From positions 4,133 through 68,132 of the IMG/VR virus record IMGVR_UViG_3300044568_002024: a DNA stretch of 64,000 nt. One strand, 5' to 3'. Source of the DNA: a virus. Shown one piece after another: positions 10,129 through 52,239 of the stretch (within the stretch, counting starts at the first letter, position 1; each line of letters starts with the position of its first letter). The translations under genes and the position numbers were made by a program. The notes below the pieces were generated by a model. That model made no database searches. It had not been told where the DNA came from and was given only the letters and a program-made list of their open reading frames with translations.

Positions 10129-10386
10129 ATGATTACAATTAAACATTTCACTGCATCGTGGTGTCAGCCATGTAAGCAACTGTCTCCTATTATGAGAGAG
10201 TTGAGTTCCCAAAATCCAACAGTTGGCTATCAAGTAATTGATATTGATAACAACTCTCATGTTGCACAACAATATGGTGTTCGTGCAGTTCCAACAATAG
10301 TTTTTGAGAAGCACGGTTCTGTTGTTCAAACAGTTGTTGGTGTCCAACCAAAATCATATTATCAAAATCTTATCAATAGTCTGTAA
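10129..10386 (+). CDS. trxA: Thioredoxin
   Basis: FTASWCQPCK, VRAVPT. Confidence 0.93.
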   Translation: MITIKHFTASWCQPCKQLSPIMRELSSQNPTVGYQVIDIDNNSHVAQQYGVRAVPTIVFEKHGSVVQTVVGVQPKSYYQNLINSL

Positions 10387-10394: not shown

Positions 10395-11144
10395 ATGTCA
10401 GACTTCTTTCAGTATGATACGAAAGATGTCACAATAACTTTACCTGATGTTGTCATTGAAAGACATGAAAACATTTGGGTAGTCCGTGATGACTTACTTC
10501 CTGGTGGAACAAAAAGAAGATTTTTATATCGTTATCTTCAATCGCAATCTCATGTGAGAGAATGGGTATATGCATCACCGAGAGTTGGCTATGCTCAAGT
10601 TGCACTTGCTTATGTTTGTAAAGACTTGGGATTGAAAGCAACCGTTATCATTCCGAAAGGAAAACATCTACCATTAACAGACGAAGCAATCTCTATCGGT
10701 GCAAACATTATAGAAGTTCCAATGGGATTTCTTACACACATTCAACACGTTGCTAAAAAGTATGCAGTAGAAACTCCTGGCTCACAATTACTTCCGTTTG
10801 GTCTTGACCATCCTGTTGTTATAGATGAAGTTGCTAGAATTGCAAGTTCACTACCGATACAACCGAAAGAAATTTGGTCATGTATAAGTTCAGGTGTTCT
10901 TTCAAGAGGTTTGCAGAAGGCGTGGCCAAATGCAAAAGTATATGGTGTCAGAGTTGGTCACAACACTACTGATAGAGAAAAAGGTAGGGCAGAGATTTTC
11001 ATATCGAAGTATAAATTCACACAAAAATGTAAACCCGCAGAGAAACCACCGTTTCCATCTTCGGATTATTACGATTCAAAAGTTTGGTCATTTATTAAAG
11101 AACGGGCATCAGATGATGCTTTATTTTGGAATGTAGGAGGATAA
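10395..11144 (+). CDS. Fold-type II PLP-dependent enzyme (ACC deaminase/Cys desulfhydrase-like; possible DNA hypermodification enzyme)
   Basis: VVRDDLLPGGTKRR Schiff-base Lys motif, GYAQVALA, SSGVLSRG, LFWNVG. Confidence 0.75.
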   Translation: MSDFFQYDTKDVTITLPDVVIERHENIWVVRDDLLPGGTKRRFLYRYLQSQSHVREWVYASPRVGYAQVALAYVCKDLGLKATVIIPKGKHLPLTDEAISIGANIIEVPMGFLTHIQHVAKKYAVETPGSQLLPFGLDHPVVIDEVARIASSLPIQPKEIWSCISSGVLSRGLQKAWPNAKVYGVRVGHNTTDREKGRAEIFISKYKFTQKCKPAEKPPFPSSDYYDSKVWSFIKERASDDALFWNVGG

Positions 11145-11145
11145 A

Positions 11146-11646
11146 ATGAGTTTAGTTGGCAAATGGTTTCCCAATTACAAATTAAATTACACAAATGATT
11201 TGGATTTAACAGTAAAATTTCGTAAATTAGTTCCTGAAGCAGTAACACCGGAGTATGCTCAAAACGGTGATGCTGGTTTAGATTTAACTGCAACATCATT
11301 TAGATTTACTGATACATTCATGGAATACGGAACAGGTATTGCTGTAGAAATTCCAAGTGGTCATGTTGGTCTTCTGTTTCCGAGAAGTTCAATCACAAAG
11401 GCACCATCTGGTGTTTCATTGAAAAATTCAGTTGGAGTTATTGATTCAAATTATCGTGGTGAGATACTCGTTAGATTTGAAAAACCAACACATGAAACTT
11501 ATGTTGAAAATCATATTCCAGTTGTTGGTGACAAAGTTGCTCAGTTGATAATTCTGCCATACCCAAAGGTTTATTTTGAAGAAGTTCAAGAATTGTCTGA
11601 TACTAATAGAGGTAACGGTGGATTTGGTTCAACGGATAAAAAATGA
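11146..11646 (+). CDS. dut: Trimeric dUTPase
   Basis: AGLDL, PRSS, GVIDSNYRGE, AQLII, RGNGGFGST. Confidence 0.95.
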   Translation: MSLVGKWFPNYKLNYTNDLDLTVKFRKLVPEAVTPEYAQNGDAGLDLTATSFRFTDTFMEYGTGIAVEIPSGHVGLLFPRSSITKAPSGVSLKNSVGVIDSNYRGEILVRFEKPTHETYVENHIPVVGDKVAQLIILPYPKVYFEEVQELSDTNRGNGGFGSTDKK

Positions 11647-11651
11647 TTTGT

Positions 11652-11660
11652 ATATTTATA
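11652..11660 (+). promoter_or_regulatory. Putative late promoter ATATTTATA
   Basis: Intergenic, 30 bp before ATG 11691. Confidence 0.6.
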
Positions 11661-11690
11661 GTAAACTGATTTTCATAACAGAGAGAAATT

Positions 11691-12338
11691 ATGGCAAAGT
11701 TAAAACATCTATTACCCGATAAACAATTAAATGAGAGTGGTCTTGCTCGTTTAGCAAAACATATGTCTGAACATGACTGTGGAACAATAACTGCATTCCG
11801 TTCAAAAGAGGGATGTGCGGGTCCAGAAGACAAATCATATACAAAGGCAGATAATCAAAAAAGAAATAAACAACTTTATGCAAATCTTCAAATGTTAGGA
11901 TATGCCGCTACTGCCGTTCATGGTGCATACATTGAAAACTATGGAACGCCAGATGCAAAGGAAGTTAGAGAAAATGTATATTTCGTTGTTGATATTCGTG
12001 ATAAAGGATCTTTGCGCAATGATCTTGAAAATCTTGGTAACAAGTATCAACAAGATTCTGTATTGTTTATACCAAAAGGTGGCGAAGGATCAATCTTAAT
12101 CGGAACAAATGATTGTAAAAATTCTTATCCTGGATTTGGTAGAGAAATGAAATTCAGAGATAGAAAGATGGGGCAAGGTGGGGAATTTATGACAAAGATT
12201 TCAGGCAGGCCTTTCATGTTTGAAAGTAATTTGCTAGAAACAGTTATAGATGATAACTACTTTCAACATGCAAATATAATGGGTAAGTGGGCAACCAAGA
12301 CTATTGCAAAGGGCGATTGGAAAGATATTGATATTTAA
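11691..12338 (+). CDS. Hypothetical phage protein with MAKLKHLL..LNE leader
   Basis: CGTITAFRS, NQKRNKQL, YQQDSVLF. Confidence 0.7.
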   Translation: MAKLKHLLPDKQLNESGLARLAKHMSEHDCGTITAFRSKEGCAGPEDKSYTKADNQKRNKQLYANLQMLGYAATAVHGAYIENYGTPDAKEVRENVYFVVDIRDKGSLRNDLENLGNKYQQDSVLFIPKGGEGSILIGTNDCKNSYPGFGREMKFRDRKMGQGGEFMTKISGRPFMFESNLLETVIDDNYFQHANIMGKWATKTIAKGDWKDIDI

Positions 12339-12359
12339 TGTTTAACTAAAAGGTTTACT

Positions 12360-12644
12360 ATGAGCCGGTCATATAGAAAAAATTCAATAATAGGCAATAC
12401 GGGTTCATCTGAAAAATACGATAAAGTTCATGCTCACAGAAAGAGTAGGAAACAAATAAAGGATCATATTGCAGCAACTCATGGTGATTTAGATTCATTA
12501 CAAGAAATTCTAATGCCAATAGAAGATGAAGTATCTGATAATTGGACATCTTCAAAGGATGGTAAAACTTATTGGGATATAAATGAAAATGAAAATGATT
12601 CAGATTGGTTAAAAGATTTTAAGAAAAAACTTATGAGGAAATGA
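12360..12644 (+). CDS. Hypothetical basic protein
   Basis: MSRSYRK start, AAGGT SD. Confidence 0.7.
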   Translation: MSRSYRKNSIIGNTGSSEKYDKVHAHRKSRKQIKDHIAATHGDLDSLQEILMPIEDEVSDNWTSSKDGKTYWDINENENDSDWLKDFKKKLMRK

Positions 12645-12946
12645 TTGTTATGGATTTTATTATGGTTGAACCTGTTAGAAACAAATTAAGTGCATTTCAT
12701 TTTGATGGTAGTGAAAAATCTGCAAACGAAGCGCTTGATAAATGGGATTGTATCATCGGAAGAAGTGAGAATTTTGATAACAAATATGTAATAACATTTT
12801 CATCTAGTAAACAATGTTTTCCTAATGGATATATTGTTCTTGAAAATCAGGAACCAACTCCATATACACAAGATGAATTTATTAAGAAATATCAAATAGT
12901 ATACAATCTTAGAGACCGTGTGGGGAATTTTTATACAACAGATTAA
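12641..12946 (+). CDS. Hypothetical protein
   Basis: ATGA overlap with upstream gene. Confidence 0.65.
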   Translation: MIVMDFIMVEPVRNKLSAFHFDGSEKSANEALDKWDCIIGRSENFDNKYVITFSSSKQCFPNGYIVLENQEPTPYTQDEFIKKYQIVYNLRDRVGNFYTTD

Positions 12947-12957
12947 AATGGTGTTTC

Positions 12958-14184
12958 GTGGATCAAGATTACTTCCAACAATTTTACGGTATGGAACCGT
13001 ATCTTACAATAACTGCTGAACAAATAACATACATAAAAGAAAACTTCGATAAAGAATACGTAAAGGATCGTCTTGCTGAAATAGCAATGACATATCCTTT
13101 ACCGTATGCTGAAATTACTATTGACGATGCACAACGAGAGTTTCTAAAACTTAAAGGTATTCGTTGGAACGAACTTCTAAAAGAAGGAGAGTGGTTTCCA
13201 AGAAAGGCATCTGAACCAAAATATGCTTTGATATATGAAGGAAAACAGTTATATTTCAGTCGTTTGAATACTGGCAATGATGCATCAAATTATTTCCAAC
13301 AAAAGAATCGTTGGGAAGTTGATGCGTCAGTTTCGCCAGGTCCTGCTAGAACATGGTCTAACCATAAGTTTATGAAATCACTAATGGGTTCTATGTATTC
13401 GCTCAAGATGGAAACACTTGGTAAATCAGAATTAAGAACGATGTTAGGACTTCGTAAATATATCTGTTCACAATTCAAACCAAATGTTGCTAAAGTTCTA
13501 TACGAAATGTTAGGTGCAAAGAATGTATTGGACTTTTCTATGGGATGGGGTGACAGACTTGCTGGTTTTTATGCAGCATCTTGTACCCAACATTATGTTG
13601 GATTGGATCCAAGAGTAGAGAATCATCCGATATATGAAGAACAAAAAGAGTTCTATGAAAAGAATTTAGGTTTCTTTGAAAGTAAAAAGAAAACAAATTT
13701 CTATACATCACCAGCAGAAGATTTTGATTTCACACAATATCCGGAACACTTTGACTTGGTGTTTACATCGCCTCCGTATTTTAATGTTGAAAAGTATTCG
13801 CAATCAAACACACAAAGTTGGGTTCGATATAAAGGTATTGATGAATGGAATAAAAACTTTCTGCATAAAACATTGAGTAATATCATCCCATCATTGAGAG
13901 TTGGTGGTATTATGGCAATAAACATTGCAGATGTTTACACAAACTCTGCATGGTCTACCGGTCGTCAATGGTTAGAGATAACAAATCCAATGAGTGATTT
14001 CCTTGTAGAGAATGGAATGGAATATATCGGTTGTATCGGAATGGAAATGTCAAAGAGACCAAACTCTGCCGGTGCCGGAACTGCAACAAGAGACGGACAC
14101 TTCCTTGATGATAGTGTAGAATTTGCAGAAAAGAATAAAGATAAAAAGTTTTGTGAACCAATATGGATGTTTAGAAGAGTTTAA
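12958..14184 (+). CDS. DNA amino-methyltransferase (m6A/m4C) paralog 1
   Basis: LDFSMGWGDR (SAM motif I), FTSPPYF (motif IV), C-terminal EPIWMF. Confidence 0.8.
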   Translation: MDQDYFQQFYGMEPYLTITAEQITYIKENFDKEYVKDRLAEIAMTYPLPYAEITIDDAQREFLKLKGIRWNELLKEGEWFPRKASEPKYALIYEGKQLYFSRLNTGNDASNYFQQKNRWEVDASVSPGPARTWSNHKFMKSLMGSMYSLKMETLGKSELRTMLGLRKYICSQFKPNVAKVLYEMLGAKNVLDFSMGWGDRLAGFYAASCTQHYVGLDPRVENHPIYEEQKEFYEKNLGFFESKKKTNFYTSPAEDFDFTQYPEHFDLVFTSPPYFNVEKYSQSNTQSWVRYKGIDEWNKNFLHKTLSNIIPSLRVGGIMAINIADVYTNSAWSTGRQWLEITNPMSDFLVENGMEYIGCIGMEMSKRPNSAGAGTATRDGHFLDDSVEFAEKNKDKKFCEPIWMFRRV

Positions 14185-14185
14185 T

Positions 14186-16702
14186 ATGTATCAAAACATT
14201 TTCGTAAAAACAAATACAAAAGAAGCATGGGTTTGGGATGATGTCAAAGGTTTAATGCACTTTGAATATACTCCGTATGCTTACAAGAAAGATCCTAATG
14301 GTAAATATGTTTCTCTTTATGGGGATAAACTTTCAAAGGTTACAAACTTTGTTAAAAATGATCCAGACTTATTTGAATCTGATATTGCAGAGACAACGCG
14401 TATTCTTGTTGATATGTATGGTGATTCAGATATGCCATCAAAGGGCATTGTAACCATGACATTCGATATTGAGGTGGAAATGATTACAGGTCTTCCGGAT
14501 CCAACACAAGGAAATAATGAAGTCACATCTATTGCATATCACGACTCTGCATCAGACCATTATACAATTCTCGTATTGGATAAGAAAAGAAAGTTGGAAT
14601 CGAAAACCACGGATAACAAAACAGTGATTCCATGCTACGATGAAAAAACTTTGTTATTGAAATTCATAGATGCAATTCAAGAAATCCAACCTCATGTTAT
14701 GACCGGTTGGAATTGTGATGCGTTCGATATTCCATATTTGTATAATCGTATCAAAAGAGTTCTTGGAAAAAAACAAGCACAAAATCTTTCTGTTATCGGC
14801 GAAATGTTTTACTCACCATATAGAAATCGTTACACAATCGGTGGAACATCGGTGCTTGATTACATGACTGTTTACAAAAAGTTTTCATATAAGGAATTGC
14901 CATCGTATGCCCTAAACTATGTTTGTAATACCGAACTTGGTCGTGGTAAGGTTGAGTATGAGGGAAATCTTGATGACTTGATGGAAAATGATATTGATAC
15001 ATTCATTGAATACAACATTACAGACGTTGAGTTGGTAATTGAATTAGATAAGAAATTACAATACATTGATTTGGTTAGAGGTATCGCCCATGTCGGTCAT
15101 GTTCCTTATGAAGACTTTGTTTATTCGTCAAAGTATCTTGAAGGTGCGATGCTCACATATCTGAAACACATTGGTGGGGTTGTTGCACCAAACAAACCAG
15201 CAGATAGACAAGAGAAGATGCAAGAATTGAAAGATAGTGGAGAGAAAGGATTCATTGGAGCATTCGTTAAGGATCCTGTACCTGGTAGATATGAGTGGAT
15301 GTATGACTTGGACTTAACATCACTTTATCCGTCAATCATTATGACATTAAACATTTCACCTGAAACAAAGATTGCTAAGATTGATAATTGGGATGCAGAA
15401 CAATTTCTTCGTGGTAATGTAGATGAATATATTGTTGGTGGTGAAAAGGTATCGAAAGAAAAGTTAAAGGCATTTTTGGATAAATACAAATACACAGTTG
15501 CATCAAACGGTGTTATGTATAGTTCAGAAAGAACGGGACTAATTCCTGCAATTCTTTCTGATTGGTTTGATAAACGAGTTGAATACAAAGATGAAATGAA
15601 GAAATGGGGTAAAGCTGGTGACACAGCAAAATATGAGTTCTATAAGAAAAGACAGTTGGTTCAAAAGATTCTTCTTAATTCTATGTATGGTATTTTAGGT
15701 CTACCTGCATTTCGTTTTTATGATATTGATAATGCTGAGGCGGTTACTCTTTCTGGTCAAACTGTGATTAAGAAAACAGAAGCGGCAATCAATATGAAAT
15801 ACAACAAAGAATTGAAAACGGATGATACAGATTATGTTCAATATGTTGATACTGATTCCGTGTTTGTTTCATGTTTGCCACTCGTTAAGAATAGATTTCC
15901 AGATATTGATACTGATGATATTGAATTGATGACACCAAAGATTTATGAGATTGCAACGGAAGTTCAAAATTATGTCAATCAATTCTATGATGTATTTGCT
16001 AAAAAGATATTCAATACGGAAAAACACAGATTAGAAATCAAACAAGAAATGATTGGTAGGACTGGCTTCTGGCAAAAGAAAAAGAGATATGCTCTTTGGA
16101 TTATATCTGACAACGGTGTTCCGATGGATAAATTGGAAGTGAAAGGTTTGGATATTGTTCGTTCATCATTCCCCAAATCATTTCAGAAACTTATGAGAGA
16201 AGTCATGGTGGATATTCTCAAAGACAAGGACAAGGAAGAAATAGATGAAAACATATTGACTTTCAAACGAAAATTGAATACAGTTTTGTATTCAGAGGTT
16301 GCCAAAACATCTTCGATAAAAGATATTAAAAAATATGCAAGTATGGTAAGTGATGATGTTCTTGGTAAGTTTGGTAAAGGAACGCCATCACATATCAAGG
16401 CGGCCATGAACTACAATAATCTGTTAAAAGTATTTGGTTGTCCTCCAAAGTTTCCGCCAATCAAAAATGGTGATAAGGTTAAGATTGCTTATTTGAAAAA
16501 CAACAAATACGGATTGGAAGAGTTGGCGTTTCGTGGTGATTCGGATCCAGAACAAATCATTGAATTTATCAAAGAACATTTTGATGCCAATGAATTATTT
16601 GTGTCTGAATTGGATGGCAAGTTAAGAAACTTTTATGAGGCAATGAAGTGGGATTTCCCAACAGAGAATAAAAAAGTTGCACAAAAGTTTTTTTCGTTTT
16701 GA
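14186..16702 (+). CDS. polB: Family B DNA polymerase (T4 gp43-like)
   Basis: FDIE, TGWNCDAFDIPY, YNITDV exonuclease motifs; DLTSLYPS, KILLNSMYG, YVDTDS, KKRYA. Confidence 0.97.
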   Translation: MYQNIFVKTNTKEAWVWDDVKGLMHFEYTPYAYKKDPNGKYVSLYGDKLSKVTNFVKNDPDLFESDIAETTRILVDMYGDSDMPSKGIVTMTFDIEVEMITGLPDPTQGNNEVTSIAYHDSASDHYTILVLDKKRKLESKTTDNKTVIPCYDEKTLLLKFIDAIQEIQPHVMTGWNCDAFDIPYLYNRIKRVLGKKQAQNLSVIGEMFYSPYRNRYTIGGTSVLDYMTVYKKFSYKELPSYALNYVCNTELGRGKVEYEGNLDDLMENDIDTFIEYNITDVELVIELDKKLQYIDLVRGIAHVGHVPYEDFVYSSKYLEGAMLTYLKHIGGVVAPNKPADRQEKMQELKDSGEKGFIGAFVKDPVPGRYEWMYDLDLTSLYPSIIMTLNISPETKIAKIDNWDAEQFLRGNVDEYIVGGEKVSKEKLKAFLDKYKYTVASNGVMYSSERTGLIPAILSDWFDKRVEYKDEMKKWGKAGDTAKYEFYKKRQLVQKILLNSMYGILGLPAFRFYDIDNAEAVTLSGQTVIKKTEAAINMKYNKELKTDDTDYVQYVDTDSVFVSCLPLVKNRFPDIDTDDIELMTPKIYEIATEVQNYVNQFYDVFAKKIFNTEKHRLEIKQEMIGRTGFWQKKKRYALWIISDNGVPMDKLEVKGLDIVRSSFPKSFQKLMREVMVDILKDKDKEEIDENILTFKRKLNTVLYSEVAKTSSIKDIKKYASMVSDDVLGKFGKGTPSHIKAAMNYNNLLKVFGCPPKFPPIKNGDKVKIAYLKNNKYGLEELAFRGDSDPEQIIEFIKEHFDANELFVSELDGKLRNFYEAMKWDFPTENKKVAQKFFSF

Positions 16703-16728
16703 TAATTCAAGTTTTTTTCGTATATTTG
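16698..16728 (+). promoter_or_regulatory. Bacteroidota-type -33/-7 promoter
   Basis: TTTG-N19-TATATTTG upstream of clamp gene. Confidence 0.7.
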
Positions 16729-16763
16729 TATACATTATTTACTAATCATTAAGGATTTTTGTT

Positions 16764-17483
16764 ATGGAAAAATCAAAATTGCTCAACTTTATCAGCAAGT
16801 ATCACTTGGGTAAGTTGATTCAATCTGTTGCTTGGAATGTAAACAGTGGTCTATCTACTCGTTTTATTTCCGATGATAAATGTGTTGTTGGTGAAGTTAA
16901 GTTAAAAAGTTTTCAAGGTGACGATTGGAAGTTTGGTGTTTACAATACAGACTTGCTTGTAAGTTTGTTGGGTGTTCTTGGTAACACAGTAAACTTTCAA
17001 GTCAATGGTGCCGGTGATAAGGCATTCTCATTGACTATTGATGACAAATCAACTACTGTAAACTATATGTTGGCTGACCTTGCAGTTATTCCACCTGCAC
17101 CAGACCTTAAAGAATTGCCACCATTTGAATTGGATATTACAATTACAAAAGAATTTATTGATAAATTTATCAAAGCTAAATCTGCTTTGTCTGATATTGA
17201 GAAGTTCACTGTATTGAAGAATGAAAAATTGAACAAATATCAAATTGTTCTTGGTTATTCAAATACAAATTCAAATCGTATCTCGATTGATATTGACTGC
17301 AATGCAAGTGGGGATATCGATCCTATTAGTTTCTCTGCAAAATACTTTAATGGTATTCTTGCCGCTAATAAAGACCTTAATGGTGGAACACTTAAAGTTT
17401 CTTCACAAGGTTTGGCAAAAGTTGAATTTGATATTGATGACTTTGAAGCAAAGTATTATTTGGTAAAATTGGATAACAACTAA
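16764..17483 (+). CDS. Sliding clamp (gp45/PCNA-like)
   Basis: 239 aa, FGVYNTDLLVSLL, LKVSSQGLAKVEF, YYLV; between polymerase and clamp loader. Confidence 0.75.
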   Translation: MEKSKLLNFISKYHLGKLIQSVAWNVNSGLSTRFISDDKCVVGEVKLKSFQGDDWKFGVYNTDLLVSLLGVLGNTVNFQVNGAGDKAFSLTIDDKSTTVNYMLADLAVIPPAPDLKELPPFELDITITKEFIDKFIKAKSALSDIEKFTVLKNEKLNKYQIVLGYSNTNSNRISIDIDCNASGDIDPISFSAKYFNGILAANKDLNGGTLKVSSQGLAKVEFDIDDFEAKYYLVKLDNN

Positions 17484-19105
17484 TGAAAAAGTATTTCTAT
17501 GAAAAAAGTGATGTCCTATCTTGGCCATCAAATATAACATACGGTGAACTTGTATCATATGATATGGATAAGTTTACTGAATGGGTTGAAGAATTGCGTC
17601 AAAGGTTTTTGAAAGATTGGGATGAAAACGGAAAGCCGCCACTCGTTGGCAGGAGTGAAGAAGAAATCGTGCAATCATTTTCAAAACTTCGTCAATTCAA
17701 TACATCAAAGATTTTTCATAGTCCAGAAAAAGGTAATGACGCTGACATCATCGGCGTCATTGCCAATTTTTCTAAAAATGGTTCTGCCGCCAATCAATTC
17801 TTCCCAACGATGTTAAAGACAAAAATTGGGGGTGGAACATCGGAAGAAACTGCGAGATCTATTTACGATTTCTTCACAGATGAAATGAAAGATACTTTTC
17901 TTCATGTTATGAAAAGAACTCTTTACAATGACTCAATGTATTTGTATAGTAAATCAATTTCTTCAAATCAAATTAGAAATCCATATTTTCGTGAGGGAGA
18001 AACACTTCGAGATTTCTTTTTAGCATTCAAGAATGGTGATGGTAGATTTGATGGTCAAGGTTTGCGTATTTCAAAAATATCATGCACACTTGATACATAC
18101 AATAAAAAGTATACGAAGTATTTGACTATAAAGGCAGATGAAATTCGTGAGTTTGTAAAGGATGGAACACTTGATGAAAGTATGACATTTTATCTTGGTG
18201 AAATTGATGAATTGACTGATACATTTATGATTAAAAAAGATGGAGAAGAACCAAGAGTTAATGTGTTTTTAGTCCGTGTATATGAAAAGAGTGCACGATT
18301 GTTTCCACAGGCATTCCAGATATTCCGTATTTCATTCTCACAACCGGCTGTAAACTTTCCACCAATGACTGCAAAGTTTTTGTATGAACATTTTACAAAA
18401 CATATTCCTGCAAGTGAAACTGTTACAGTTTATGATCCAAGTTCAGGATGGGGTGGAAGAATACTTGGTGCAATGTCTGTCAGTCGTGCAATACATTATG
18501 TTGGAACTGATCCCAATACTGATAATTTTATTTCTGATTTGGGAATATCAAGATATGAATATCTTGCTGATTTTTATTTGAAGTCCATCGGTGAGAAAGG
18601 TAGTTCTCTATCATCAAGATTTTTTGATGTAAAAGAAAACCACACCTATGAAGTTTTCCAAGACGGTTCGGAAGTAATTCAACACAATTCTAAATTCAAA
18701 AAATATGAAGGTAAGTTAGATTTTGCTTTCACATCGCCTCCATATTTTAATCGTGAAATGTATTCTGATGATGAAACGCAGTCATACAAATCACATGGCG
18801 AGTATGCAGATTGGAGAGATAACTTTCTTCGCCCAACACTTGAAACTGCTGTTAGATATTTGAAAAACGATAGATACCTTTGTTGGAACATTGCAAATAT
18901 CAAAGTATCTGCAAATAAAACAATTCATCTTGAAGAAGATTCTATTGAGATATTGAAATCACTTGGTATGGAATACAAAGGTAAAATCTGTATGTTAATG
19001 ACAAAGATGATTGGTAATTCCGATCCAGAGAGACTTGCAAATAAAGTTTTATTCAACGGTGAGTGGTTCAAACACGAACCGATATTTGTTTTCAGAAAAC
19101 CATAA
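17483..19105 (+). CDS. DNA amino-methyltransferase paralog 2
   Basis: YDPSSGWGGR, FTSPPYF, HEPIFVF. Confidence 0.8.
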   Translation: MKKYFYEKSDVLSWPSNITYGELVSYDMDKFTEWVEELRQRFLKDWDENGKPPLVGRSEEEIVQSFSKLRQFNTSKIFHSPEKGNDADIIGVIANFSKNGSAANQFFPTMLKTKIGGGTSEETARSIYDFFTDEMKDTFLHVMKRTLYNDSMYLYSKSISSNQIRNPYFREGETLRDFFLAFKNGDGRFDGQGLRISKISCTLDTYNKKYTKYLTIKADEIREFVKDGTLDESMTFYLGEIDELTDTFMIKKDGEEPRVNVFLVRVYEKSARLFPQAFQIFRISFSQPAVNFPPMTAKFLYEHFTKHIPASETVTVYDPSSGWGGRILGAMSVSRAIHYVGTDPNTDNFISDLGISRYEYLADFYLKSIGEKGSSLSSRFFDVKENHTYEVFQDGSEVIQHNSKFKKYEGKLDFAFTSPPYFNREMYSDDETQSYKSHGEYADWRDNFLRPTLETAVRYLKNDRYLCWNIANIKVSANKTIHLEEDSIEILKSLGMEYKGKICMLMTKMIGNSDPERLANKVLFNGEWFKHEPIFVFRKP

Positions 19106-19106
19106 T

Positions 19107-20171
19107 ATGAAAGTAGATAGTGAAAGTTTAGGTAAATTTTTTGATGTTGATCCGCTAGAAGTTCGTCTGTGGAAAGAAACGGGCGAATACTTTGCAGGTA
19201 AAAGAGAATTGGATGATACGATTGATTGTATCTTTCAGTATTACCGCAAACATGGTTATCCGTATATGAAAATCACCGAACAAGAAAAACATGAACACAT
19301 GAGAAAACTTCAACAGTTTGATTATGATTCTATTTTCAAAGATGGTGATATAATTCAAACCATGAACGGACTTCGATTGGCGTGGTCATACTTTCCTCAT
19401 GCAATGGAAGTAAAGTGTGGCAATTCTAAAATGTCTCCTATGGATAATTTTTTGAATGACCAAACATTCAAAATGACTATTCGTAAATGTTTGAAATGGT
19501 TATCAAAACATTGGGGTGGTTCTTTTCAAGAAAACCGTTTGCGTCAATCACTTAAAATATATTCTGGTGTTCAAGGTGTTTCCAATTTCAGACCAACTGC
19601 CGCCGGTGTTATCTATAAAAAATATGGCGGTGACGGTGTTATGTGGGATATGTCTTGCGGTTGGGGTGGAAGATTGGTGGGTGCTCTTGCATCACCATAC
19701 ATCAAAACGTATATCGGAACTGAACCATCTACAAAAACATTTGAAGGACTATGTAAACTTCGTGATGACTTTGATTATCTTGGGAAAGATATTCAATTAA
19801 ACATGATGGGTTCAGAAGATTATCTTCCAGAAGCAGAAACATTAGACTTATGTTTTACTTCACCACCATATTTTGATACAGAAAAATATGCAGATGAAGA
19901 AACACAGTCATACAATAAGTTTCCAACAAGAGAAGATTGGGGTTCTGGTTTCTTACAAGGGACATTTCGGAATTGTTATCATGGATTGAAAAAGGGTGGC
20001 TATATGTTAATCAACATAGCCAACACACCAAAGTATAAAGACCTCGAAGAAATGACTATAAAGTATGCCAACTTAGTTGGCTTTACTCATACTGATACCC
20101 TACAACTGATACTATCTGCCGTCATGGGTGCAGGATATAAAAGAGAGCCAATCTTTGTTTTTCAAAAATAA
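19107..20171 (+). CDS. DNA amino-methyltransferase paralog 3
   Basis: WDMSCGWGGR, FTSPPYF, REPIFVF; ATG 19107 just after upstream stop. Confidence 0.8.
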   Translation: MKVDSESLGKFFDVDPLEVRLWKETGEYFAGKRELDDTIDCIFQYYRKHGYPYMKITEQEKHEHMRKLQQFDYDSIFKDGDIIQTMNGLRLAWSYFPHAMEVKCGNSKMSPMDNFLNDQTFKMTIRKCLKWLSKHWGGSFQENRLRQSLKIYSGVQGVSNFRPTAAGVIYKKYGGDGVMWDMSCGWGGRLVGALASPYIKTYIGTEPSTKTFEGLCKLRDDFDYLGKDIQLNMMGSEDYLPEAETLDLCFTSPPYFDTEKYADEETQSYNKFPTREDWGSGFLQGTFRNCYHGLKKGGYMLINIANTPKYKDLEEMTIKYANLVGFTHTDTLQLILSAVMGAGYKREPIFVFQK

Positions 20172-20203
20172 TTTGGATCTTATCTAGAAATTTTGTATAT
20201 TAG
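20172..20203 (+). promoter_or_regulatory. Bacteroidota-type promoter variant
   Basis: TTTG-N20-TATATTAG. Confidence 0.6.
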
Positions 20204-20234
20204 TATATGAATTTATCAAACATTAAGGTATGTT

Positions 20235-21173
20235 ATGTTTAACCCCTCACACACAATTTGGAATGAAAAGTATCGTCCACAGACACTTGACACTTATGTT
20301 GGCAACGATACTGTAAAGGCAACCTTTCAACAATATATTGACACAAACGATGTTCCTCACTTACTACTTTATGGCGATGCTGGTAGTGGTAAAACCACAC
20401 TTGCCAAGATTGTTGCAAATACTATTGCAAAAGATAACTACATTTATATCAACGCATCTGATGAAAACTCCGTAGATACGGTTCGTGATAAAATCAAACA
20501 GTTTGCTTCTTCGATTGGTTTCGGTGGATTGAAATTGATTATCCTTGATGAATGTGATTACATGACACCGAATGCGCAGGCGGCACTTCGTAATGTGATT
20601 GAAACATTCAGTAAGACTACTCGTTTCATTTTGACTTGTAACTATGTAGATAAGATTATCGATCCTATCCAGTCTCGTTGTCAGATATTCAATATAGTTC
20701 CGCCATCGAAGAAAGAAGTTGCTTCACACCTTGTAAAAATTCTTGATGGTGAAAATGTAAAGTATGAGAAAGATAGTCTTGTAACAATTATCAATCAATC
20801 TTATCCAGATATTCGCCGTGTGATTAACACAACTCAAAGATGTGTTATCGGTGGTGTTTTGAAATTGGATGAAACAACTTTAGTAGAACACAATTATCTT
20901 TCTTCTATTGTTGATATTCTCAAATCAAGTAAGAACAAAAAAGAAAAGTTTGATGGTATTCGTCAGTTACTTGCTGATAATCATGTTAGAGACTTTAATC
21001 AGATGTTTCGTTATCTGTATGATAATGTTGATACATTCGCCAATGGTTTTGTTTCAACTATCATCTTGATAATTGCAGAAGCACAATACAAAGACAGTTT
21101 TGTTGTAGACCATGAAATAAATGCCATGGCTATGTTTATTCAAATTATTATGGAAATTGACCAACGGAGGTAA
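20235..21173 (+). CDS. Clamp loader AAA+ subunit (RFC small / T4 gp44-like)
   Basis: WNEKYRPQTL, GDAGSGKTT, INASDE, IILDECD, QSRC, YPDIRR. Confidence 0.95.
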   Translation: MFNPSHTIWNEKYRPQTLDTYVGNDTVKATFQQYIDTNDVPHLLLYGDAGSGKTTLAKIVANTIAKDNYIYINASDENSVDTVRDKIKQFASSIGFGGLKLIILDECDYMTPNAQAALRNVIETFSKTTRFILTCNYVDKIIDPIQSRCQIFNIVPPSKKEVASHLVKILDGENVKYEKDSLVTIINQSYPDIRRVINTTQRCVIGGVLKLDETTLVEHNYLSSIVDILKSSKNKKEKFDGIRQLLADNHVRDFNQMFRYLYDNVDTFANGFVSTIILIIAEAQYKDSFVVDHEINAMAMFIQIIMEIDQRR

Positions 21174-21175
21174 CA

Positions 21176-21442
21176 ATGAGTGTGTATGACATTAACGGTG
21201 GTGGAGAAATACCACAACAGCAACAACAAGTAAATGTAGACTTAAATCAGGCAACTGATATTGAATGTTCAAAATGTGGTGGTAAGTTTTTCCACGAAGT
21301 AACATTCTTCAAAAAGATTTCTGCACTTCTTTCACCAACTGGACAAGAAGGTATTTTACCAATTCCAACTTATGCGTGTTTGGAATGTGGTAACATCAAT
21401 GATGAATTTTTACCAAGCAAAAGACAACAACTTAATGATTAA
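21176..21442 (+). CDS. Zinc-ribbon protein
   Basis: CSKC...CLEC. Confidence 0.75.
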   Translation: MSVYDINGGGEIPQQQQQVNVDLNQATDIECSKCGGKFFHEVTFFKKISALLSPTGQEGILPIPTYACLECGNINDEFLPSKRQQLND

Positions 21443-21450
21443 GGATTATC

Positions 21451-21906
21451 ATGGCTGCAAAAAGTTTATTTGATCATATTAAAGGTGTCACTATTCGTAA
21501 AACGAAATGGGAAGACCTTTCAGAAGAAGATACTAAATCATGGAGCAACTATATGATTGCTCGTTTCTTTTCAATGGAACCTGAATTTGTTGAAGCTATA
21601 AATGAGTTTCAAACATATTCAAATGGAATACTATCTTCAAAGGATTACTATAAACTTTTACATGATGTCCTCCCAAAAAAATCGTTCTTTCTCAAATACA
21701 TAAAAGGTAAAAACAAAATAGATATTGAACCAGAAATGGTATCAGTATTCTGCAACCATTATGAATTGGGAAGGAACGAAGTCTATGGGTATATCAAATA
21801 TCTGGCAAAAGAAAATCCAGATGAATTGATTGGTATACTAAAACAGTATGGAACATCTGAAGCAGATATTAAAAAATTTGAAAAACAATTAAAGACTGTA
21901 AAATGA
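21451..21906 (+). CDS. Clamp loader small subunit (T4 gp62-like)
   Basis: SLFDHI, WSNYMIARFFSM, LPKKSFFLKYIK; position after gp44-like gene. Confidence 0.65.
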   Translation: MAAKSLFDHIKGVTIRKTKWEDLSEEDTKSWSNYMIARFFSMEPEFVEAINEFQTYSNGILSSKDYYKLLHDVLPKKSFFLKYIKGKNKIDIEPEMVSVFCNHYELGRNEVYGYIKYLAKENPDELIGILKQYGTSEADIKKFEKQLKTVK

Positions 21907-22289
21907 GGAATACTAAAATGGCAATCACCGAAAGAGATTTGGGTATAAAACAATCAGAAGTTGTCACAGAAATGGAAAAGAAATTTCCTGTTATGACTGC
22001 TGAGTTTAAGCGTATTCAACAGGCACAATATGAATTGTTTTGTGCAAAACAGAGTAACTATGGTCCAGACAATATATCAATGGGTAGTTCTCTTGAACGA
22101 GAAGAAGACCGCAAACTTTCCCTACAAGGTTTGTTTTTTAGATTGAACGATAAAATAAACCGTTACAAACAAATGATTATGTTTGGATCAAAAGATGCAG
22201 TTGGTGAAAGTCTTGATGATACATTCAAAGATATTTCAGTATATGGTATTATCACACAACTTGTTCAGTCTGGCAAGTGGGGTAAATAA
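21903..22289 (+). CDS. Nucleotide-modification-associated domain 1 (Nmad1/DUF1599-like)
   Basis: KQSNYG, RLNDKINR, ESLDDTFKDISVYGII. Confidence 0.7.
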   Translation: MRNTKMAITERDLGIKQSEVVTEMEKKFPVMTAEFKRIQQAQYELFCAKQSNYGPDNISMGSSLEREEDRKLSLQGLFFRLNDKINRYKQMIMFGSKDAVGESLDDTFKDISVYGIITQLVQSGKWGK

Positions 22290-23200
22290 TGGCCAACAGA
22301 AAAGTATCTTTCTCACAATATCAAATGTGGAAAGTCTGTCCTCATAGATGGAAACTGAATTACATAGATAAACACTATACGTATCAACCATCAACCGCTG
22401 CTCTTTTTGGAACGGTTATGCATGAGGTATTGCAAGAATATGTAAAAAACATTTATGAGAAATCAATCGTTGAGGCAAATAAACTTGACCTTGATGAAAT
22501 GTTACACACGGGCATTCGTAGTGAATATAAAAAACTTCTCGAAGAAGCAAAGGGTATTCATTTCTCAAATGATAAAGAGTTGAAAGAATACTATTCCGAT
22601 GGTGTTCAAATTATTCAATGGTTTAAGGCACATCGTGCAGACTTCTTTCAAAAGAAAGATTATGAATTGGTTGGTATAGAAGTTCCGATAAACATAGTTC
22701 CACTTGAAACTCACCCAACAGTAAAGTTAGTTGGGTTTCTTGATTTGGTAATTAAGAATACCAAAACAGGAGACATATACATATATGATTTCAAAACTAG
22801 CACGAATGGTTGGAACAAATATGCAAAGACGGATAAAGTAAAAACTTCACAGTTGATACTCTACAAAACATATTATGCAAAACAATATGGTGTTAGTCCG
22901 GAACAAATACACATTGAGTATTTAATTCTTCGGCGTAAAATAATGGAAAACGCTGAGTATGAAGCGATGAAACAAAGAGTTCAAAGATTTGAACCATCCA
23001 ACGGCAAAGTTTCACAGAACAATATCAAGAAAGAAATTGCAGAGTTTATCACAACAAACTTTACGGAAGAAGGTGAGTATCGTTTGGATGTTATACAAAC
23101 GCCAGATGCAGGACGTGATTATTCAAATTGTAAATACTGTGAGTTTAATAAAAACGAAGAACTCTGTCCGAAAGAACAAAGAAATACTTTACCGTTCTAA
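22289..23200 (+). CDS. PD-(D/E)XK nuclease, RecB/Cas4-like with four-Cys cluster motif
   Basis: CPHRW, GFLDL, IYDFKT, QLILY, CKYCEF..LCP. Confidence 0.85.
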   Translation: MANRKVSFSQYQMWKVCPHRWKLNYIDKHYTYQPSTAALFGTVMHEVLQEYVKNIYEKSIVEANKLDLDEMLHTGIRSEYKKLLEEAKGIHFSNDKELKEYYSDGVQIIQWFKAHRADFFQKKDYELVGIEVPINIVPLETHPTVKLVGFLDLVIKNTKTGDIYIYDFKTSTNGWNKYAKTDKVKTSQLILYKTYYAKQYGVSPEQIHIEYLILRRKIMENAEYEAMKQRVQRFEPSNGKVSQNNIKKEIAEFITTNFTEEGEYRLDVIQTPDAGRDYSNCKYCEFNKNEELCPKEQRNTLPF

Positions 23201-23241
23201 AAATAAATCTACTATTTTCTAATGTTTTCTAAAATTAGTAC

Positions 23242-23250
23242 ATATTTATA
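23242..23250 (+). promoter_or_regulatory. Putative late promoter ATATTTATA
   Basis: Upstream of RHH/glycosyltransferase operon. Confidence 0.55.
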
Positions 23251-23278
23251 TGTATATGTTTAATCATTCGAGAATGTT

Positions 23279-23431
23279 GTGAACGCAAAATCAAAATACT
23301 CCAGTATTCAAATACGTAATCAACTCAAAGAAGAATTGGTAAATTATTGTAGTGATAATGGATATAAGTTGAGTGGGTTGGTAGAAAAACTAATTCTTAA
23401 TCATTTAACCGGAAGTTTAGGTGTTTCGTGA
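23279..23431 (+). CDS. Small ribbon-helix-helix-like DNA-binding protein; not in ORF track
   Basis: GTG start; KYSSIQIRNQLKEELVNYCSDNGYKLSGLVEKLI; GTGA overlap with next gene. Confidence 0.6.
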   Translation: MNAKSKYSSIQIRNQLKEELVNYCSDNGYKLSGLVEKLILNHLTGSLGVS

Positions 23432-24813
23432 AAATAGCTCAATTGGCAATCATTGACCTATCAGTTTATAGGGGCATACATACATTCACTAAAAATATAT
23501 CATCACTTGATAGTGTTGATACTTTTTATTTTAACCCAAGTGAAACAAACAATTTCAAATCTGAATATCAGAACTGTATAGATATTTCCGAAATGGAAAT
23601 AGCTGAATTGAAAGATAAATTGGAAGGTTATGATATTGTTGTTTTGAACCTCAACAAATTTATCTACGATGTTGATGGTATTCAAAAAAGAAAACCAGAA
23701 CATAGAGAAAGACTGATTGAATTGGCAAAGATGTATTGTCAGTTGAATACTATAACTGCATTCTTTGACCACGAGATATATCCGTATGAAGGCATGCACT
23801 TCAATACCATTTGTGTTCCGGCATTCATAAAGTATAGTGATTACTACTTAACATACACTCCGTTCTTTGTAGATGCCTTGAAAGAATATATTGGAATGAG
23901 AGGAACTTCCAACTATACTTTTCAAGTAGGTGGTTATATTGACATGAGTATTTATGACAAGTGGATTGAAAAGTCGTGGTTAGATAAAAAAGAATTACCA
24001 TACATTTCAGAATGTGCTTACTATGCAAAATTCAAAGGTCATGGGAACTTCAAACCAATAGTAGAAACGATGAATAAGATGGGACTTAGAGACTTGTCTG
24101 GTAAGAAATTGGTTCATATTGGAAATACATACTCACCCGAAAATTATTTCAATCATGTAAAGATATTGGCAGAACACGCGAATGTTTCTCGTAAAACTTT
24201 TAGTGATACATTTCTTCCGGACTTTGATTTGGATCCAACTGTATTCAAAGTTTTTGATAACCATAAACCCATGATACTTGCAGGAACATACACGATGGAA
24301 AGTATGATGGACTTTTTATCTGGTTGTAGATTTAGTATATCAACAACAAATACAAAAGTGCCGTTTTTCGGAATGTTCATTACACCGAGATTTGAATATG
24401 CTCAAATAGAAAAAAACTTAATGACTATTCCAATCTATGATAAAACATATATTGATTTGTTTAAGGGAACAGAATTTTCTGAATTAGTTTTATCTTATGA
24501 CATAAATGATTTGGAAAATTCATTAAAAAGTCTTATATTAGAGATTCAAAGATTAGAACAAGATGAAGAAGAATATAACAGACGAAGATTGAGATTGATA
24601 CGATTAACAAGAGATATGAATAAACTTGATAACTTTGTTCGTGATATGCAAACAATAGTTTCAAACGGTAAAAGAAATAAAGACGATTATTCGGAAGATT
24701 GGTTTAATTCTTCGTTAGAACAAATGGGTTACAAATTCAAACCATACCGTAAAATGCTTATTAACATGAACGGTGTTTCGTCAAACACAACAAAAAAGTT
24801 TTTTAACATATAA
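23428..24813 (+). CDS. T4 alpha-glucosyltransferase-like GT-B enzyme (putative DNA glycosyltransferase)
   Basis: Colinear matches to recalled T4 AGT motifs: YDIVVLN, FFDHE, YTFQ, SWLDKKE, GNTYSP, KPMILAGTY..SMMDFLS, FEYAQIE..TIPIY, YDINDLE. Confidence 0.65.
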   Translation: MKIAQLAIIDLSVYRGIHTFTKNISSLDSVDTFYFNPSETNNFKSEYQNCIDISEMEIAELKDKLEGYDIVVLNLNKFIYDVDGIQKRKPEHRERLIELAKMYCQLNTITAFFDHEIYPYEGMHFNTICVPAFIKYSDYYLTYTPFFVDALKEYIGMRGTSNYTFQVGGYIDMSIYDKWIEKSWLDKKELPYISECAYYAKFKGHGNFKPIVETMNKMGLRDLSGKKLVHIGNTYSPENYFNHVKILAEHANVSRKTFSDTFLPDFDLDPTVFKVFDNHKPMILAGTYTMESMMDFLSGCRFSISTTNTKVPFFGMFITPRFEYAQIEKNLMTIPIYDKTYIDLFKGTEFSELVLSYDINDLENSLKSLILEIQRLEQDEEEYNRRRLRLIRLTRDMNKLDNFVRDMQTIVSNGKRNKDDYSEDWFNSSLEQMGYKFKPYRKMLINMNGVSSNTTKKFFNI

Positions 24814-26247: not shown

Positions 26248-26254
26248 GGATAAA

Positions 26255-27574: not shown

Positions 27575-28200
27575 TTTCATATACAATAACTGCCTGTAAT
27601 GAAGAAAAAGAACTTTTGAATTTGTTGGAATCTCTAACACCACATATCACCGATGATGATCAATTGGTTATACAACTGGATATTGAAAGAGTTACCCAAG
27701 AAGTGAGAGAAGTTGTTTATCAGTATTTGGATAAAGTAAAAAATATGGTAGTGGTAGAATTTCCATTGTCAAATGATTTTGCTTCATTTAAGAACAATCT
27801 AAAAACTCATTGCACAAAAGATTGGATATTCAACATTGATGCCGATGAAGTTCCATCTTCCTTTTTATTATCAAATATAAAATCCATATTGAAAACAAAT
27901 GAAGAAGTAGATATGTTTTTGGTTCCAAGATGGAATACAGTATTCGGTATAACTGGAGATCATATTGAAAAATGGGGTTGGAAATTTGATGAACAAGACA
28001 GAGTTAATTGGCCTGATTATCAAACCAGAATATACAAAAACAAAGAATCAATAGTTTGGGTTAATAAAGTCCATGAGAGAATACAGGGTTTTGATACATA
28101 TACAAATTTGCCAGAAGATGAGGCATATTGTTTGTATCACATGAAATCTATAAACAAACAAGAAAGTCAAAACTTATTTTATCAAAACATGGAAAGATAA
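27571..28200 (+). CDS. GT2 glycosyltransferase
   Basis: DFASFKN, IDADE, PDYQTR, VHE. Confidence 0.88.
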   Translation: MISYTITACNEEKELLNLLESLTPHITDDDQLVIQLDIERVTQEVREVVYQYLDKVKNMVVVEFPLSNDFASFKNNLKTHCTKDWIFNIDADEVPSSFLLSNIKSILKTNEEVDMFLVPRWNTVFGITGDHIEKWGWKFDEQDRVNWPDYQTRIYKNKESIVWVNKVHERIQGFDTYTNLPEDEAYCLYHMKSINKQESQNLFYQNMER

Positions 28201-28203
28201 CAA

Positions 28204-31221: not shown

Positions 31222-31621
31222 AATTGAACCCGAAAAACTATTACACATAATTGTTCGGAAAGATGATTTCAAACCAGGTAGAGAAGATATTGTTGAAGAA
31301 AATCAATTCATACAATGTTCTATTCTACAAATGGAAAATGGAAAAACATTCAAACCACATAAACATATTTGGAAAGAAAGAACTCGTAATGTAATTGCAC
31401 AGGAAAGTTGGATTGTTGTCCAAGGCAGTGTTAAATGTATTTTTTATGATATTGATGATACACTTATTGCAGAACCAATACTGTATCCTGGTGATGCAAG
31501 TTTTACTCTTGAAGGTGGACATAATTATGAAATACTTGAAGACGATACATTAGTTTACGAATATAAAACTGGACCATATGAAGGGCAGTTAATGGATAAG
31601 ATTTTCTTGGAGATAAAATGA
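31202..31621 (+). CDS. WbuC-like cupin
   Basis: PHKH, QESW, GGHNYE, EYKTGPY. Confidence 0.8.
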   Translation: MQKIYSKIEPEKLLHIIVRKDDFKPGREDIVEENQFIQCSILQMENGKTFKPHKHIWKERTRNVIAQESWIVVQGSVKCIFYDIDDTLIAEPILYPGDASFTLEGGHNYEILEDDTLVYEYKTGPYEGQLMDKIFLEIK

Positions 31622-32562: not shown

Positions 32563-32565
32563 TAT

Positions 32566-34600: not shown

Positions 34601-34601
34601 C

Positions 34602-50251: not shown

Positions 50252-52239
<1,988 letters not shown>

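Follow-up and report, generated by a model that had tools for sequence, protein, structure and literature searches.

Replication genes and the enzymes interleaved with them

We analyzed a 64,000-nucleotide stretch of viral DNA (positions 4,133 to 68,132 of IMG/VR record IMGVR_UViG_3300044568_002024; referred to below as the window) from an uncultured freshwater phage known as a 68-kb fragment (38% completeness by CheckV; G+C content ca. 33%). Our subject is a short peptide with two adjacent phenylalanines that ends the family B DNA polymerase (PolB) of this phage and recurs in several putative DNA-modifying enzymes encoded nearby. The original prediction held that methylation and glycosylation enzymes carrying this peptide ride the phage sliding clamp and modify nascent DNA at the replication fork. 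The replisome of the phage is of the T4 type, with a family B polymerase, a trimeric gp45-like clamp and a gp44/62-like loader, and the gene order is MTase 1 (methyltransferase 1), PolB, clamp, MTase 2, MTase 3 and clamp loader, so that the predicted interleaving of MTase genes with those of the polymerase, clamp and loader holds. The genes and peptides under study are the following (aa, amino acids).

10395-11144 (+): pyridoxal phosphate (PLP)-dependent enzyme of the PALP fold (PF00291, 35.7 bits; phrog_7093, E 7e-39)
10395-10415 (+): N-terminus of the PLP enzyme, MSDFFQY, read in the sequence
12958-14184 (+): MTase 1, 408 aa from the most likely start, GTG 12958; paralogue of MTase 2 and MTase 3 (PF01555, 25.9 bits)
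12967-12993 (+): N-terminal peptide of MTase 1, DYFQQFYGM, conserved in relatives
13663-13683 (+): internal NLGFFES of MTase 1, read in the sequence
14186-16702 (+): PolB of the T4 gp43 type (PF00136, E 9e-41; phrog_262, E 2e-185)
16676-16699 (+): C-terminal peptide of PolB, VAQKFFSF, a presumed clamp-binding tail from the comparison of tails
16764-17483 (+): sliding clamp, 239 aa, distant gp45 analogue (phrog_223 "DNA polymerase processivity factor", E 6.4e-9)
17483-19105 (+): MTase 2, 540 aa; N-terminal region without assigned function followed by an SPPY amino-methyltransferase domain (PF01555, 28.2 bits)
18605-18631 (+): loop peptide of MTase 2, SLSSRFFDV, residues 375-383, an insertion relative to the paralogues
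19107-20171 (+): MTase 3, 354 aa, SPPY amino-methyltransferase, ATG 19107 (PF01555, 30.6 bits)
19125-19148 (+): N-terminal peptide of MTase 3, SLGKFFDV, residues 7-14, conserved in close relatives
20235-21173 (+): large subunit of the clamp loader, gp44/RFC type (phrog_168, E 2e-86)
21451-21906 (+): small subunit of the clamp loader, gp62 type (phrog_225, E 5e-10)
23428-24813 (+): glycosyltransferase (GT) of the α-glucosyltransferase (AGT) fold, 461 aa, GTG start, structural match only
24787-24810 (+): C-terminal peptide of the AGT-like protein, TTKKFFNI, a conserved tail

The isolate closest to the phage is Microcystis phage Mel-JY01 (PolB 61.9% identity, with all other isolates at 32% or less); a megablast search with the region found no match among isolated phages. 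The Mel-JY01 backbone is alike in containing thioredoxin, PolB, a 753-nucleotide open reading frame (ORF) at the place of the clamp, a loader, a small ORF, a loader A subunit, a nuclease and glycosyltransferases, and methyltransferases are absent from this matching backbone. Because the Mel-JY01 backbone lacks methyltransferases there, the three MTase genes appear to be lineage-specific insertions in the replisome module.

The clamp gene is located between the genes of PolB and of the gp44-like loader, an arrangement shared with Mel-JY01. Its product has no Pfam match and, in a profile search with the clamp alignment, only chance-level matches among PDB sequences. Judging from the phrog_223 match and the replisome synteny, the 239-aa protein is a distant member of the gp45-type clamps; as a trimer in the complex model described below, it reached a predicted local distance difference test score (pLDDT) of 91. 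The polymerase tail AQKFFSF is present in 15 of 16 PolB tails compared, the sixteenth, that of Mel-JY01, being LSKFFNF. Reading of the T4 sequences showed that the gp43 and gp55 tails both carry SLDFL[FY], and the gp43 tail is a known clamp epitope, as the available part of PMC2988020 states. By analogy, the C-terminal AQKFFSF is most likely the clamp-docking epitope of the phage polymerase.

MTases 1, 2 and 3 are paralogues of 24-27% identity with invariant GWG[GD]R and TSPPYF motifs, which are also invariant in 30 homologues. (S/D)PPY is the catalytic motif IV of such enzymes, and the glycine-rich motif I binds S-adenosylmethionine (SAM). A search of NCBIfam was uninformative for the MTases, the AGT-like protein and the PLP enzyme. 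From gene position among the replisome genes alone, we infer that the MTases act on DNA.

The 461-aa protein has no Pfam match at E ≤ 0.01 and no PHROG match. With its AlphaFold2 model (mean pLDDT 81, predicted TM-score 0.84) as a query, the top nine Foldseek matches in the PDB were all chains of T4 α-glucosyltransferase (E 1e-10 to 2e-9), with TM-scores of 0.63-0.71 on the target, ahead of other GT-B enzymes, at 12-15% identity. An Atlas feature match to a PF11440 cluster (score 0.95) is taken as a lead only. The search of genomes G000-G002 with PF11440 retrieved nothing, the control genomes being silent as well, and the profile of the 461-aa family retrieved only chance-level matches, and no AGT, among PDB sequences. 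Judged by its modelled fold, and not by sequence, the protein is AGT-like.

A peptide shared with the polymerase tail

When DNA and translations were read, all six peptides of the original prediction were present at their genes: PolB ends with VAQKFFSF, the 461-aa ORF ends with TTKKFFNI, MTase 3 begins with MKVDSESLGKFFDV, and MTase 2, MTase 1 and the PLP enzyme contain SLSSRFFDV, NLGFFES and MSDFFQY, respectively. The neighboring glycosyltransferases had been said to lack such termini, and indeed none of the six ORFs checked downstream (24823-30535, two of them with matches to GT families) has a terminal FF.

The bare [KR]FF string is found at 13 sites in the 96 ORFs (19,645 aa) of the window versus ca. 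5.4 expected from residue frequencies, and since it is over-represented across the window, bare K/R-F-F is weak evidence. Five residues from the C-terminus, [KR]FF is found in two of the 96 ORFs only, those of PolB and the AGT-like protein. The longer pattern [KR]FF[DNS][VIFML] has five occurrences in the window, in PolB, MTase 2, MTase 3, the AGT-like protein and the gp62-like loader subunit; NLGFFES of MTase 1 and MSDFFQY of the PLP enzyme fall outside it. Terminal copies of this pattern (at most 16 residues from the N-terminus or 12 from the C-terminus) are present in three of the 96 ORFs, i.e., those of PolB, MTase 3 and the AGT-like protein, while shuffled sequences contain 0.036 on average and none of 1000 shuffles reached three; this figure is descriptive only, the pattern having been defined post hoc from the same sequences. 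The RFFSM of the gp62-like subunit was rejected as a sixth copy: the clamp loader A subunit of Mel-JY01 (42% identity) has RWLSM at this place, within a conserved block.

The proposed check of conservation in homologues came out positive for the three main peptides. KFF is kept in 34 of 34 homologues of the AGT-like protein, 33 of which (87-98% identity) end with KFFNI, the lone 61% homologue ending with SKFFSES. The S/T/N/Q-rich linker just before this tail varies among the homologues, residues 454-461 have pLDDT below 50, and the offset of KFF from the C-terminus is identical in the AGT-like protein and PolB. The end of the AGT-like gene is 8.1 kb downstream of the polymerase stop codon, and only 10 contiguous bases are common to it and the polymerase tail. 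Scans of viral and metagenome data found no loci for two remote AGT-like homologues, P0156 and P0158, with tails ending RKLF and PGLF.

In MTase 3, for which 2463 homologues were retrieved, KFFD[VI] is kept in 21 of 21 close relatives. Among the best 120 of the 2463 homologues, a hydrophobic pattern matching residues 8-12 is found at the conserved position in 104; the peptide is missing as called in three, and one is a fragment. The AlphaFold2 model of MTase 3 has a mean pLDDT of 88.6, with a mean of 58 for residues 1-10 and a short helix predicted at residues 5-11. The peptide of MTase 2 lies within an insertion that MTase 1 has in a shorter form and MTase 3 not at all; on the MTase 3 model, the insertion point falls in the loop that joins helix 209-225 to strand 228-232. 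Its [KRN]FF is kept in 12 sequence variants of 70-97% identity, and the residues before the peptide vary, with insertions and deletions.

The case of MTase 1 is different from the one originally made. NLGFFES, offered as a weaker copy, was rejected as a docking peptide: it is part of a short, conserved loop and has no basic residue; its FF lines up with that of the MTase 2 loop, but without the insertion; and relatives at 52-53% identity have NLGWF or HQTFF instead. Its role is probably structural. The peptide resembling that of MTase 3 is N-terminal instead. DYFQQFYGM stands where MTase 3 has its peptide, and DYF..FY.M is kept in 11 of 12 MTase 1 variants (47-98% identity), the 53% variant having FR for FY. 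Only a start at GTG 12958 includes this peptide in the protein, and in marine homologues an ATG precedes it; the GTG, and not ATG 12991, is thus the most likely start of MTase 1. DYFQQFYGM may be a docking copy.

The N-terminus of MTase 2 is also aromatic (17483-17510, +): MKKYFYEK is kept in nearly all of 20 variants (one with HFY and one with FFY), and one 72% relative reads MKKFFYEK. The N-terminal FF of the PLP enzyme is likewise kept in relatives, one of which (76% identity) begins with MKKFFEY. Elsewhere in the window, the gene of a 232-aa HNH endonuclease (52267-52965, -; phrog_10822, E 2.5e-11) encodes a hydrophobic and acidic tail, ...QEKFFDWDEESESES, which the orthologue in G001 keeps as ...EKFFDWDEI; this protein may be another clamp client or a chance match.

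Since the pattern came from the window's own sequences, the genomes of relatives provide an independent test. Recurrence on other enzymes in related phages was observed, as were the peptides themselves, their positions and their conservation. In Mel-JY01, terminal [KR]FF[DNS][VIFML] is present in two of 236 ORFs (shuffled mean 0.06; none of 300 shuffles reached two). These are PolB (NLSKFFNFK) and a 434-aa PF01555 DNA methylase (E 2e-36), which ends with ...NIAKFFNMDKKEN and differs in class and architecture from the methyltransferases of the window. In 29 listed phage homologues, alignments with this methylase stop at residues 399-418 of 434, and because they stop short of the tail, the tail appears to be an add-on.

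In the marine relatives G003, G004 and G007, PolB is 46-48% identical to that of the window and ends with ...[ST]IERFF at the carboxyl terminus. ORFs ending in FF number four of 106 in G003 (shuffled mean 0.31) and three of 74 in G004 (0.10), and none of 300 shuffles reached either count, although these two genomes are related to each other and are not independent. All FF-ending ORFs of G003 and G004 adjoin the polymerase and clamp genes, and they encode, in both genomes, PolB, a PALP enzyme and a CxxCxxCC protein, the fourth in G003 being an SGNH-like protein. The marine PALP homologue aligns over its full length with the PLP enzyme of the window (22% identity, E 1e-5) and matches the same PHROGs; it has a C-terminal extension of ca. 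39 residues ending with IEHNFF, versus the N-terminal FF of the window enzyme. The CxxCxxCC protein, a putative Zn/Fe-binding protein (PF03692, 23.1 bits; G004 L138:12597-13145, G003 51323-51871), ends with ...IKH[EG]FF and is encoded right after the clamp, flanked by the genes of the PALP enzyme and of two MTase 1-like proteins; the 182-aa protein of G004 showed no relation to the N-terminal region of MTase 2. The SGNH-like ORF (167 aa; G003 48284-48787, L135:10284-10787) lies directly behind PolB, ends with SIERFF and is absent in G004. It has 18 of its last 21 bases (SIERFF and the stop codon) in common with the PolB 3′ end and nothing further upstream, and the three differences within codons are all synonymous. 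This looks like a cassette with a duplicated polymerase 3′ end kept under selection.

FF-ending ORFs are absent from G001 and Mel-JY01, and the KFFx-hydrophobic form is absent from G003 and G004. As can be seen, the tail style changes with that of PolB between lineages, and the peptide shifts among termini and loops, as a portable docking module would predict.

Predicted docking, known clamp clients and alternative explanations

A check with AlphaFold-multimer and the clamp trimer had been proposed for each peptide; complex modelling was done, with a positive result, for that of MTase 3. The clamp trimer (alignment of 39 sequences) was paired with the stretch 1-32 of MTase 3, for which 30 sequences were aligned. 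The interface score, ipSAE, was 0.63 (three runs: 0.60, 0.65 and 0.63), versus 0.01 for the best control (controls 0.00-0.01). In calibration, 58 of 80 solved complexes attained the ipSAE mark, as did two of 110 mismatched pairs; our model departs from that calibration in its use of own alignments and a trimer. Contacts agreed between the runs by at least 89%, and the pLDDT of the partner was at least 62. In the model, L8, F11 and F12 of MTase 3 touch one clamp subunit at residues 35-42, the proline-rich connector 113-119, residues 215-217 and the C-terminal strand 232-237, and the peptide sits on the clamp face that bears the protruding C-terminus. The model supports docking of the MTase 3 peptide on the clamp, at the level of prediction. 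Of the outcomes named in advance as fatal to the idea, neither loss of conservation nor burial in folds was seen in silico for the three main peptides, nor was a failure to bind, the last point referring to the MTase 3 model.

The canonical PIP box, the clamp-binding motif of partners of PCNA, has the consensus Q-x-x-[LIM]-x-x-[FY]-[FY]. The peptides of the window do not match it. An L-x-x-F-F core is recognizable in S-E-S-L-G-K-F-F of MTase 3, as it is in L-S-K-F-F of Mel-JY01 PolB and, as I-A-K-F-F, in the Mel-JY01 methylase; however, the MTase 3 peptide lacks Q at the first position, and the tails of PolB and the AGT-like protein in the window lack an upstream L/I/M at the PIP spacing. Judging from the complex model, the window peptides would act in the manner of a PIP box without being canonical members.

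Closer parallels are found in T4. The available part of PMC2988020 describes the C-terminal clamp epitopes of gp33, gp55 and gp43 as interchangeable, gp55 having a conserved hydrophobic epitope behind a divergent linker. In the same way, several proteins of one phage share the hydrophobic tail of the polymerase here, and the AGT-like tail likewise follows a divergent flexible linker; the clients, however, are a glycosyltransferase and methyltransferases instead of transcription factors, the motif is KFFx-hydrophobic and not SLDFL[FY], and two copies are N-terminal. T4 DNA ligase has a flexible loop, inserted in its catalytic domain, that copies the gp43 tail, binds gp45 and is dispensable for catalysis, with a Kd of ca. 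10.7 µM for the peptide and a crystal structure (as reported in the accessible part of PMC6212786). This is a direct precedent for MTase 2, in which a loop insertion absent from the paralogues bears a polymerase-like peptide, with the differences that the host enzyme is a methyltransferase and that clamp binding is predicted from sequence. Three features mark clients of the gp33/gp55/ligase class. Likeness to the cognate polymerase tail is found here (QKFFSF versus [QK]KFFNI, GKFFDV and SRFFDV), and location in a flexible terminus or loop outside the fold is found for the AGT-like protein and MTase 2 and, in part, for MTase 3; the third, motif-dependent physical binding to the clamp, is predicted by the complex model for MTase 3 residues 1-32.

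The view that no such phage system had been described is wrong for glycosylation, since T4 α-glucosyltransferase binds gp45: PMC13216743, which cites Sommer 2004 for this interaction, carried out the pull-down again, with the enzyme co-purifying with gp45, and notes that glucosylation concomitant with replication was proposed. Clamp-coupled modification is thus already known as a principle for glycosylation. The T4 enzyme is also the best structural match of our 461-aa protein, which is, however, ca. 60 residues longer, lacks a PF11440 sequence match and has an explicit polymerase-like tail, whereas the C-terminus of T4 α-glucosyltransferase, as read in its sequence, lacks the gp43-like SLDFL motif. 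Among eukaryotes, DNMT1 is a DNA methyltransferase with a clamp-binding motif for PCNA that raises its action on newly replicated DNA (according to the part of a review, PMC9690074, that was available); it differs in using a eukaryotic PIP box and PCNA and in being one C5-cytosine enzyme, while several phage-encoded SPPY amino-methyltransferases are considered here. A search of literature listings and abstracts, outside subscription journals and supplements, found no paper on phage DNA methyltransferases, PLP enzymes or metal enzymes as clamp clients via copied polymerase tails.

In our judgment, a clamp tether best explains the tail of the AGT-like protein, the N-terminal peptide of MTase 3 and the loop of MTase 2, and we consider it fairly likely. 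Copies of the PolB docking peptide would have been grafted onto accessory enzymes: onto the flexible C-terminal tail of the AGT-fold glycosyltransferase, onto the N-terminus of MTase 3 and probably that of MTase 1, and onto a loop in the Rossmann domain of MTase 2. Their L/F/F side chains would enter a clamp pocket formed by an N-domain strand, the proline-rich interdomain connector and the C-terminal strand, and the enzymes, kept on clamps that remain on freshly synthesized duplex, would act on new DNA. We infer that the other peptides dock likewise, that DNA bases are the targets and that modification is coupled to replication. A wider version is possible, though we doubt it more than we believe it: the clamp would serve as a tool-belt on which the PLP enzyme, the CxxCxxCC metal protein, the three amino-methyltransferases and the AGT-fold glycosyltransferase are each held by a portable polymerase docking peptide, at a terminus or loop varying by orthologue, so that base-modification steps would run on clamps behind the fork and DNA would be fully modified before host nucleases reach it.

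Several points weigh against the clamp tether, besides the commonness of bare K/R-F-F, the post hoc definition of the longer pattern, the relatedness of G003 and G004 and the rejection of NLGFFES. Excluding PolB, each single genome contributes only one to three proteins. In addition to its departure from the calibration, the complex model may have passed by reflecting memory of solved clamp-peptide complexes. FF itself is found in 17 of the 104 pattern-bearing homologues of MTase 3 (FL in 29, VF in 21; best 120 of 2463), and marine phages have the MTase 3-type peptide TLGK[FL]IDVD while their PolB ends with IERFF, so that PolB is tracked loosely. The MTase 3 peptide is continuous with a conserved helical domain and has a predicted short helix of its own, which makes a structural role possible. 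Against the PF01555 gathering cut-off of 26.7 bits, MTases 1, 2 and 3 score 25.9, 28.2 and 30.6, with only the motif IV region matched, and the Rossmann domain of MTase 3 resembles amino-methyltransferases of tRNA, rRNA or DNA, including the tRNA m2G methyltransferase Trm11, Bud23 and the M subunits of type I restriction-modification systems. Enzymes of the T4 AGT family act on hydroxymethylated pyrimidine in DNA, and PF00303 (thymidylate synthase / hydroxymethylase) was not found in G000, G001 or G002, which are partial genomes, 38-70% complete. Finally, in T4 it is the expression level and not clamp binding that mainly sets the share of α-glucosylation, according to the accessible portion of PMC13216743.

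Coincidence combined with ordinary structure would account for the peptides if the conserved FF strings were buried elements of folds without a shared partner. In a genome of 33% G+C, K, F, N and I are common and terminal KFF can arise by chance; the surplus of [KR]FF sites is mostly internal and plausibly structural (e.g., KFFHE of the Zn-ribbon protein, also present in Mel-JY01), and the RWLSM of Mel-JY01, the short conserved loop of NLGFFES and the predicted helical MTase 3 peptide abutting its conserved domain all fit such an origin. We nevertheless find it unlikely: terminal matches stand above shuffles in four genomes and fall, in each of them, on PolB and on enzymes that adjoin the polymerase and clamp or modify DNA; the tail style changes together with that of PolB; the AGT-like tail is invariant behind a variable linker of low confidence; and the Mel-JY01 methylase tail lies beyond the region common to its homologues. 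A narrower objection grants that the C-terminal tails of PolB and the AGT-like protein are clamp motifs and takes the MTase peptides for a family-wide structural cap or a substrate or oligomerisation element, with RNA as a possible target. The complex model speaks against this by placing the conserved L..FF positions of MTase 3 in the pocket, as does the likeness of the MTase 2 loop SSLSS[KR]FFDV to the N-terminal ESL[GS]KFFDV of MTase 3 at a different protein site, suggestive of a portable module, and the peptide is missing, as called, from three of the top 120 homologues (of 2463). The objection draws on the conservation of the MTase 3 peptide largely regardless of the PolB tail (with FF in the minority of homologues given above), on the same peptide position in MTase 1 and MTase 3 at ca. 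25% identity, which points to an ancient element, and on the presence of Trm11 among the best fold matches; we give it a low probability.

About equally improbable, in our estimate, are insertion scars, i.e., cassettes at or near the polymerase 3′ end that carry a duplicated piece of the polymerase gene, the tails being by-products. For the SGNH-like ORF of G003, directly behind PolB with its stretch of common bases, a scar is plausible, and, compared with the gene order of Mel-JY01, all three MTase genes are insertions. However, duplication of a 3′ end does not yield the N-terminal peptides of MTase 3 and MTase 1 or the internal one of MTase 2, and it fits poorly with the distance of the AGT-like gene end from the polymerase stop codon and its mere 10 contiguous common bases. 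Selection on the peptide is indicated both by the synonymous nature of all three codon differences in the G003 copy and by the AGT-like tail, which stays invariant among homologues of 87-98% identity although the linker drifts. Since a scar may come to be used, this explanation bears on origin more than on function. Least probable of all, in our view, is a real shared docking motif for a partner other than the clamp, such as the single-stranded DNA-binding protein, helicase, primase or a chaperone, or a protease-targeting or localisation signal. The phage has apparent GroES/GroEL-like genes, from the look of their N-termini, and T4 α-glucosyltransferase binds gp45 without a gp43-like SLDFL tail, so that clamp clients need not copy the polymerase tail, nor need polymerase-like tails mean clamp binding. 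Yet the C-terminus of T4-type polymerases is a clamp epitope interchangeable with the gp33 and gp55 tails (PMC2988020, in its available part), the model puts the MTase 3 peptide on the side of the clamp from which the C-terminus protrudes while controls scored 0.00-0.01, and the genes are interleaved with those of the clamp and loader.

Neighboring genes and significance

The remaining genes of the region are as follows.

10129-10386 (+): thioredoxin, WCQPCK-type sequence, with the Mel-JY01 thioredoxin at the syntenic place; read by eye
11146-11646 (+): dUTPase (Pfam and PHROG matches)
11691-12338 (+): protein of the S-AdoMet-lyase family (PF23780, 47.6 bits)
21176-21442 (+): Zn-ribbon protein (weak family match)
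21903-22289 (+): 128-aa protein with a weak DUF1599 match (20.9 bits, under the cut-off of 25; phrog_1485)
22289-23200 (+): PD-(D/E)XK nuclease (family match)
24823-38934 (+): long run of ORFs after the AGT-like gene, the first two matching glycosyltransferase families

It is odd that an enzyme of a SAM-destroying family (11691-12338) is encoded in the same module as three SAM-dependent methyltransferases. DUF1599 stands for "nucleotide modification associated domain 1", and the protein at 21903-22289 hints at more nucleotide-modification chemistry. On the minus strand, ORFs of 546 and 108 aa (50252-52239) are GroEL/GroES-like, judging from their N-terminal sequences alone.

Whether restriction and CRISPR attack succeed is decided by the DNA modifications of phages, and new DNA is exposed until it is modified; enzymes tethered to the clamp by a peptide would close this gap, if the clamp tether is true. 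In that case, the clients of gp45-type clamps would extend beyond the polymerase, ligase, late transcription factors and T4 α-glucosyltransferase, and the system would be a viral counterpart of DNMT1 and PCNA. The polymerase tail would also offer an inexpensive way to search the sequences of uncultured phages for new DNA-acting enzymes, and in the genomes studied here it flags the PALP enzyme, the CxxCxxCC protein and the SGNH-like protein.

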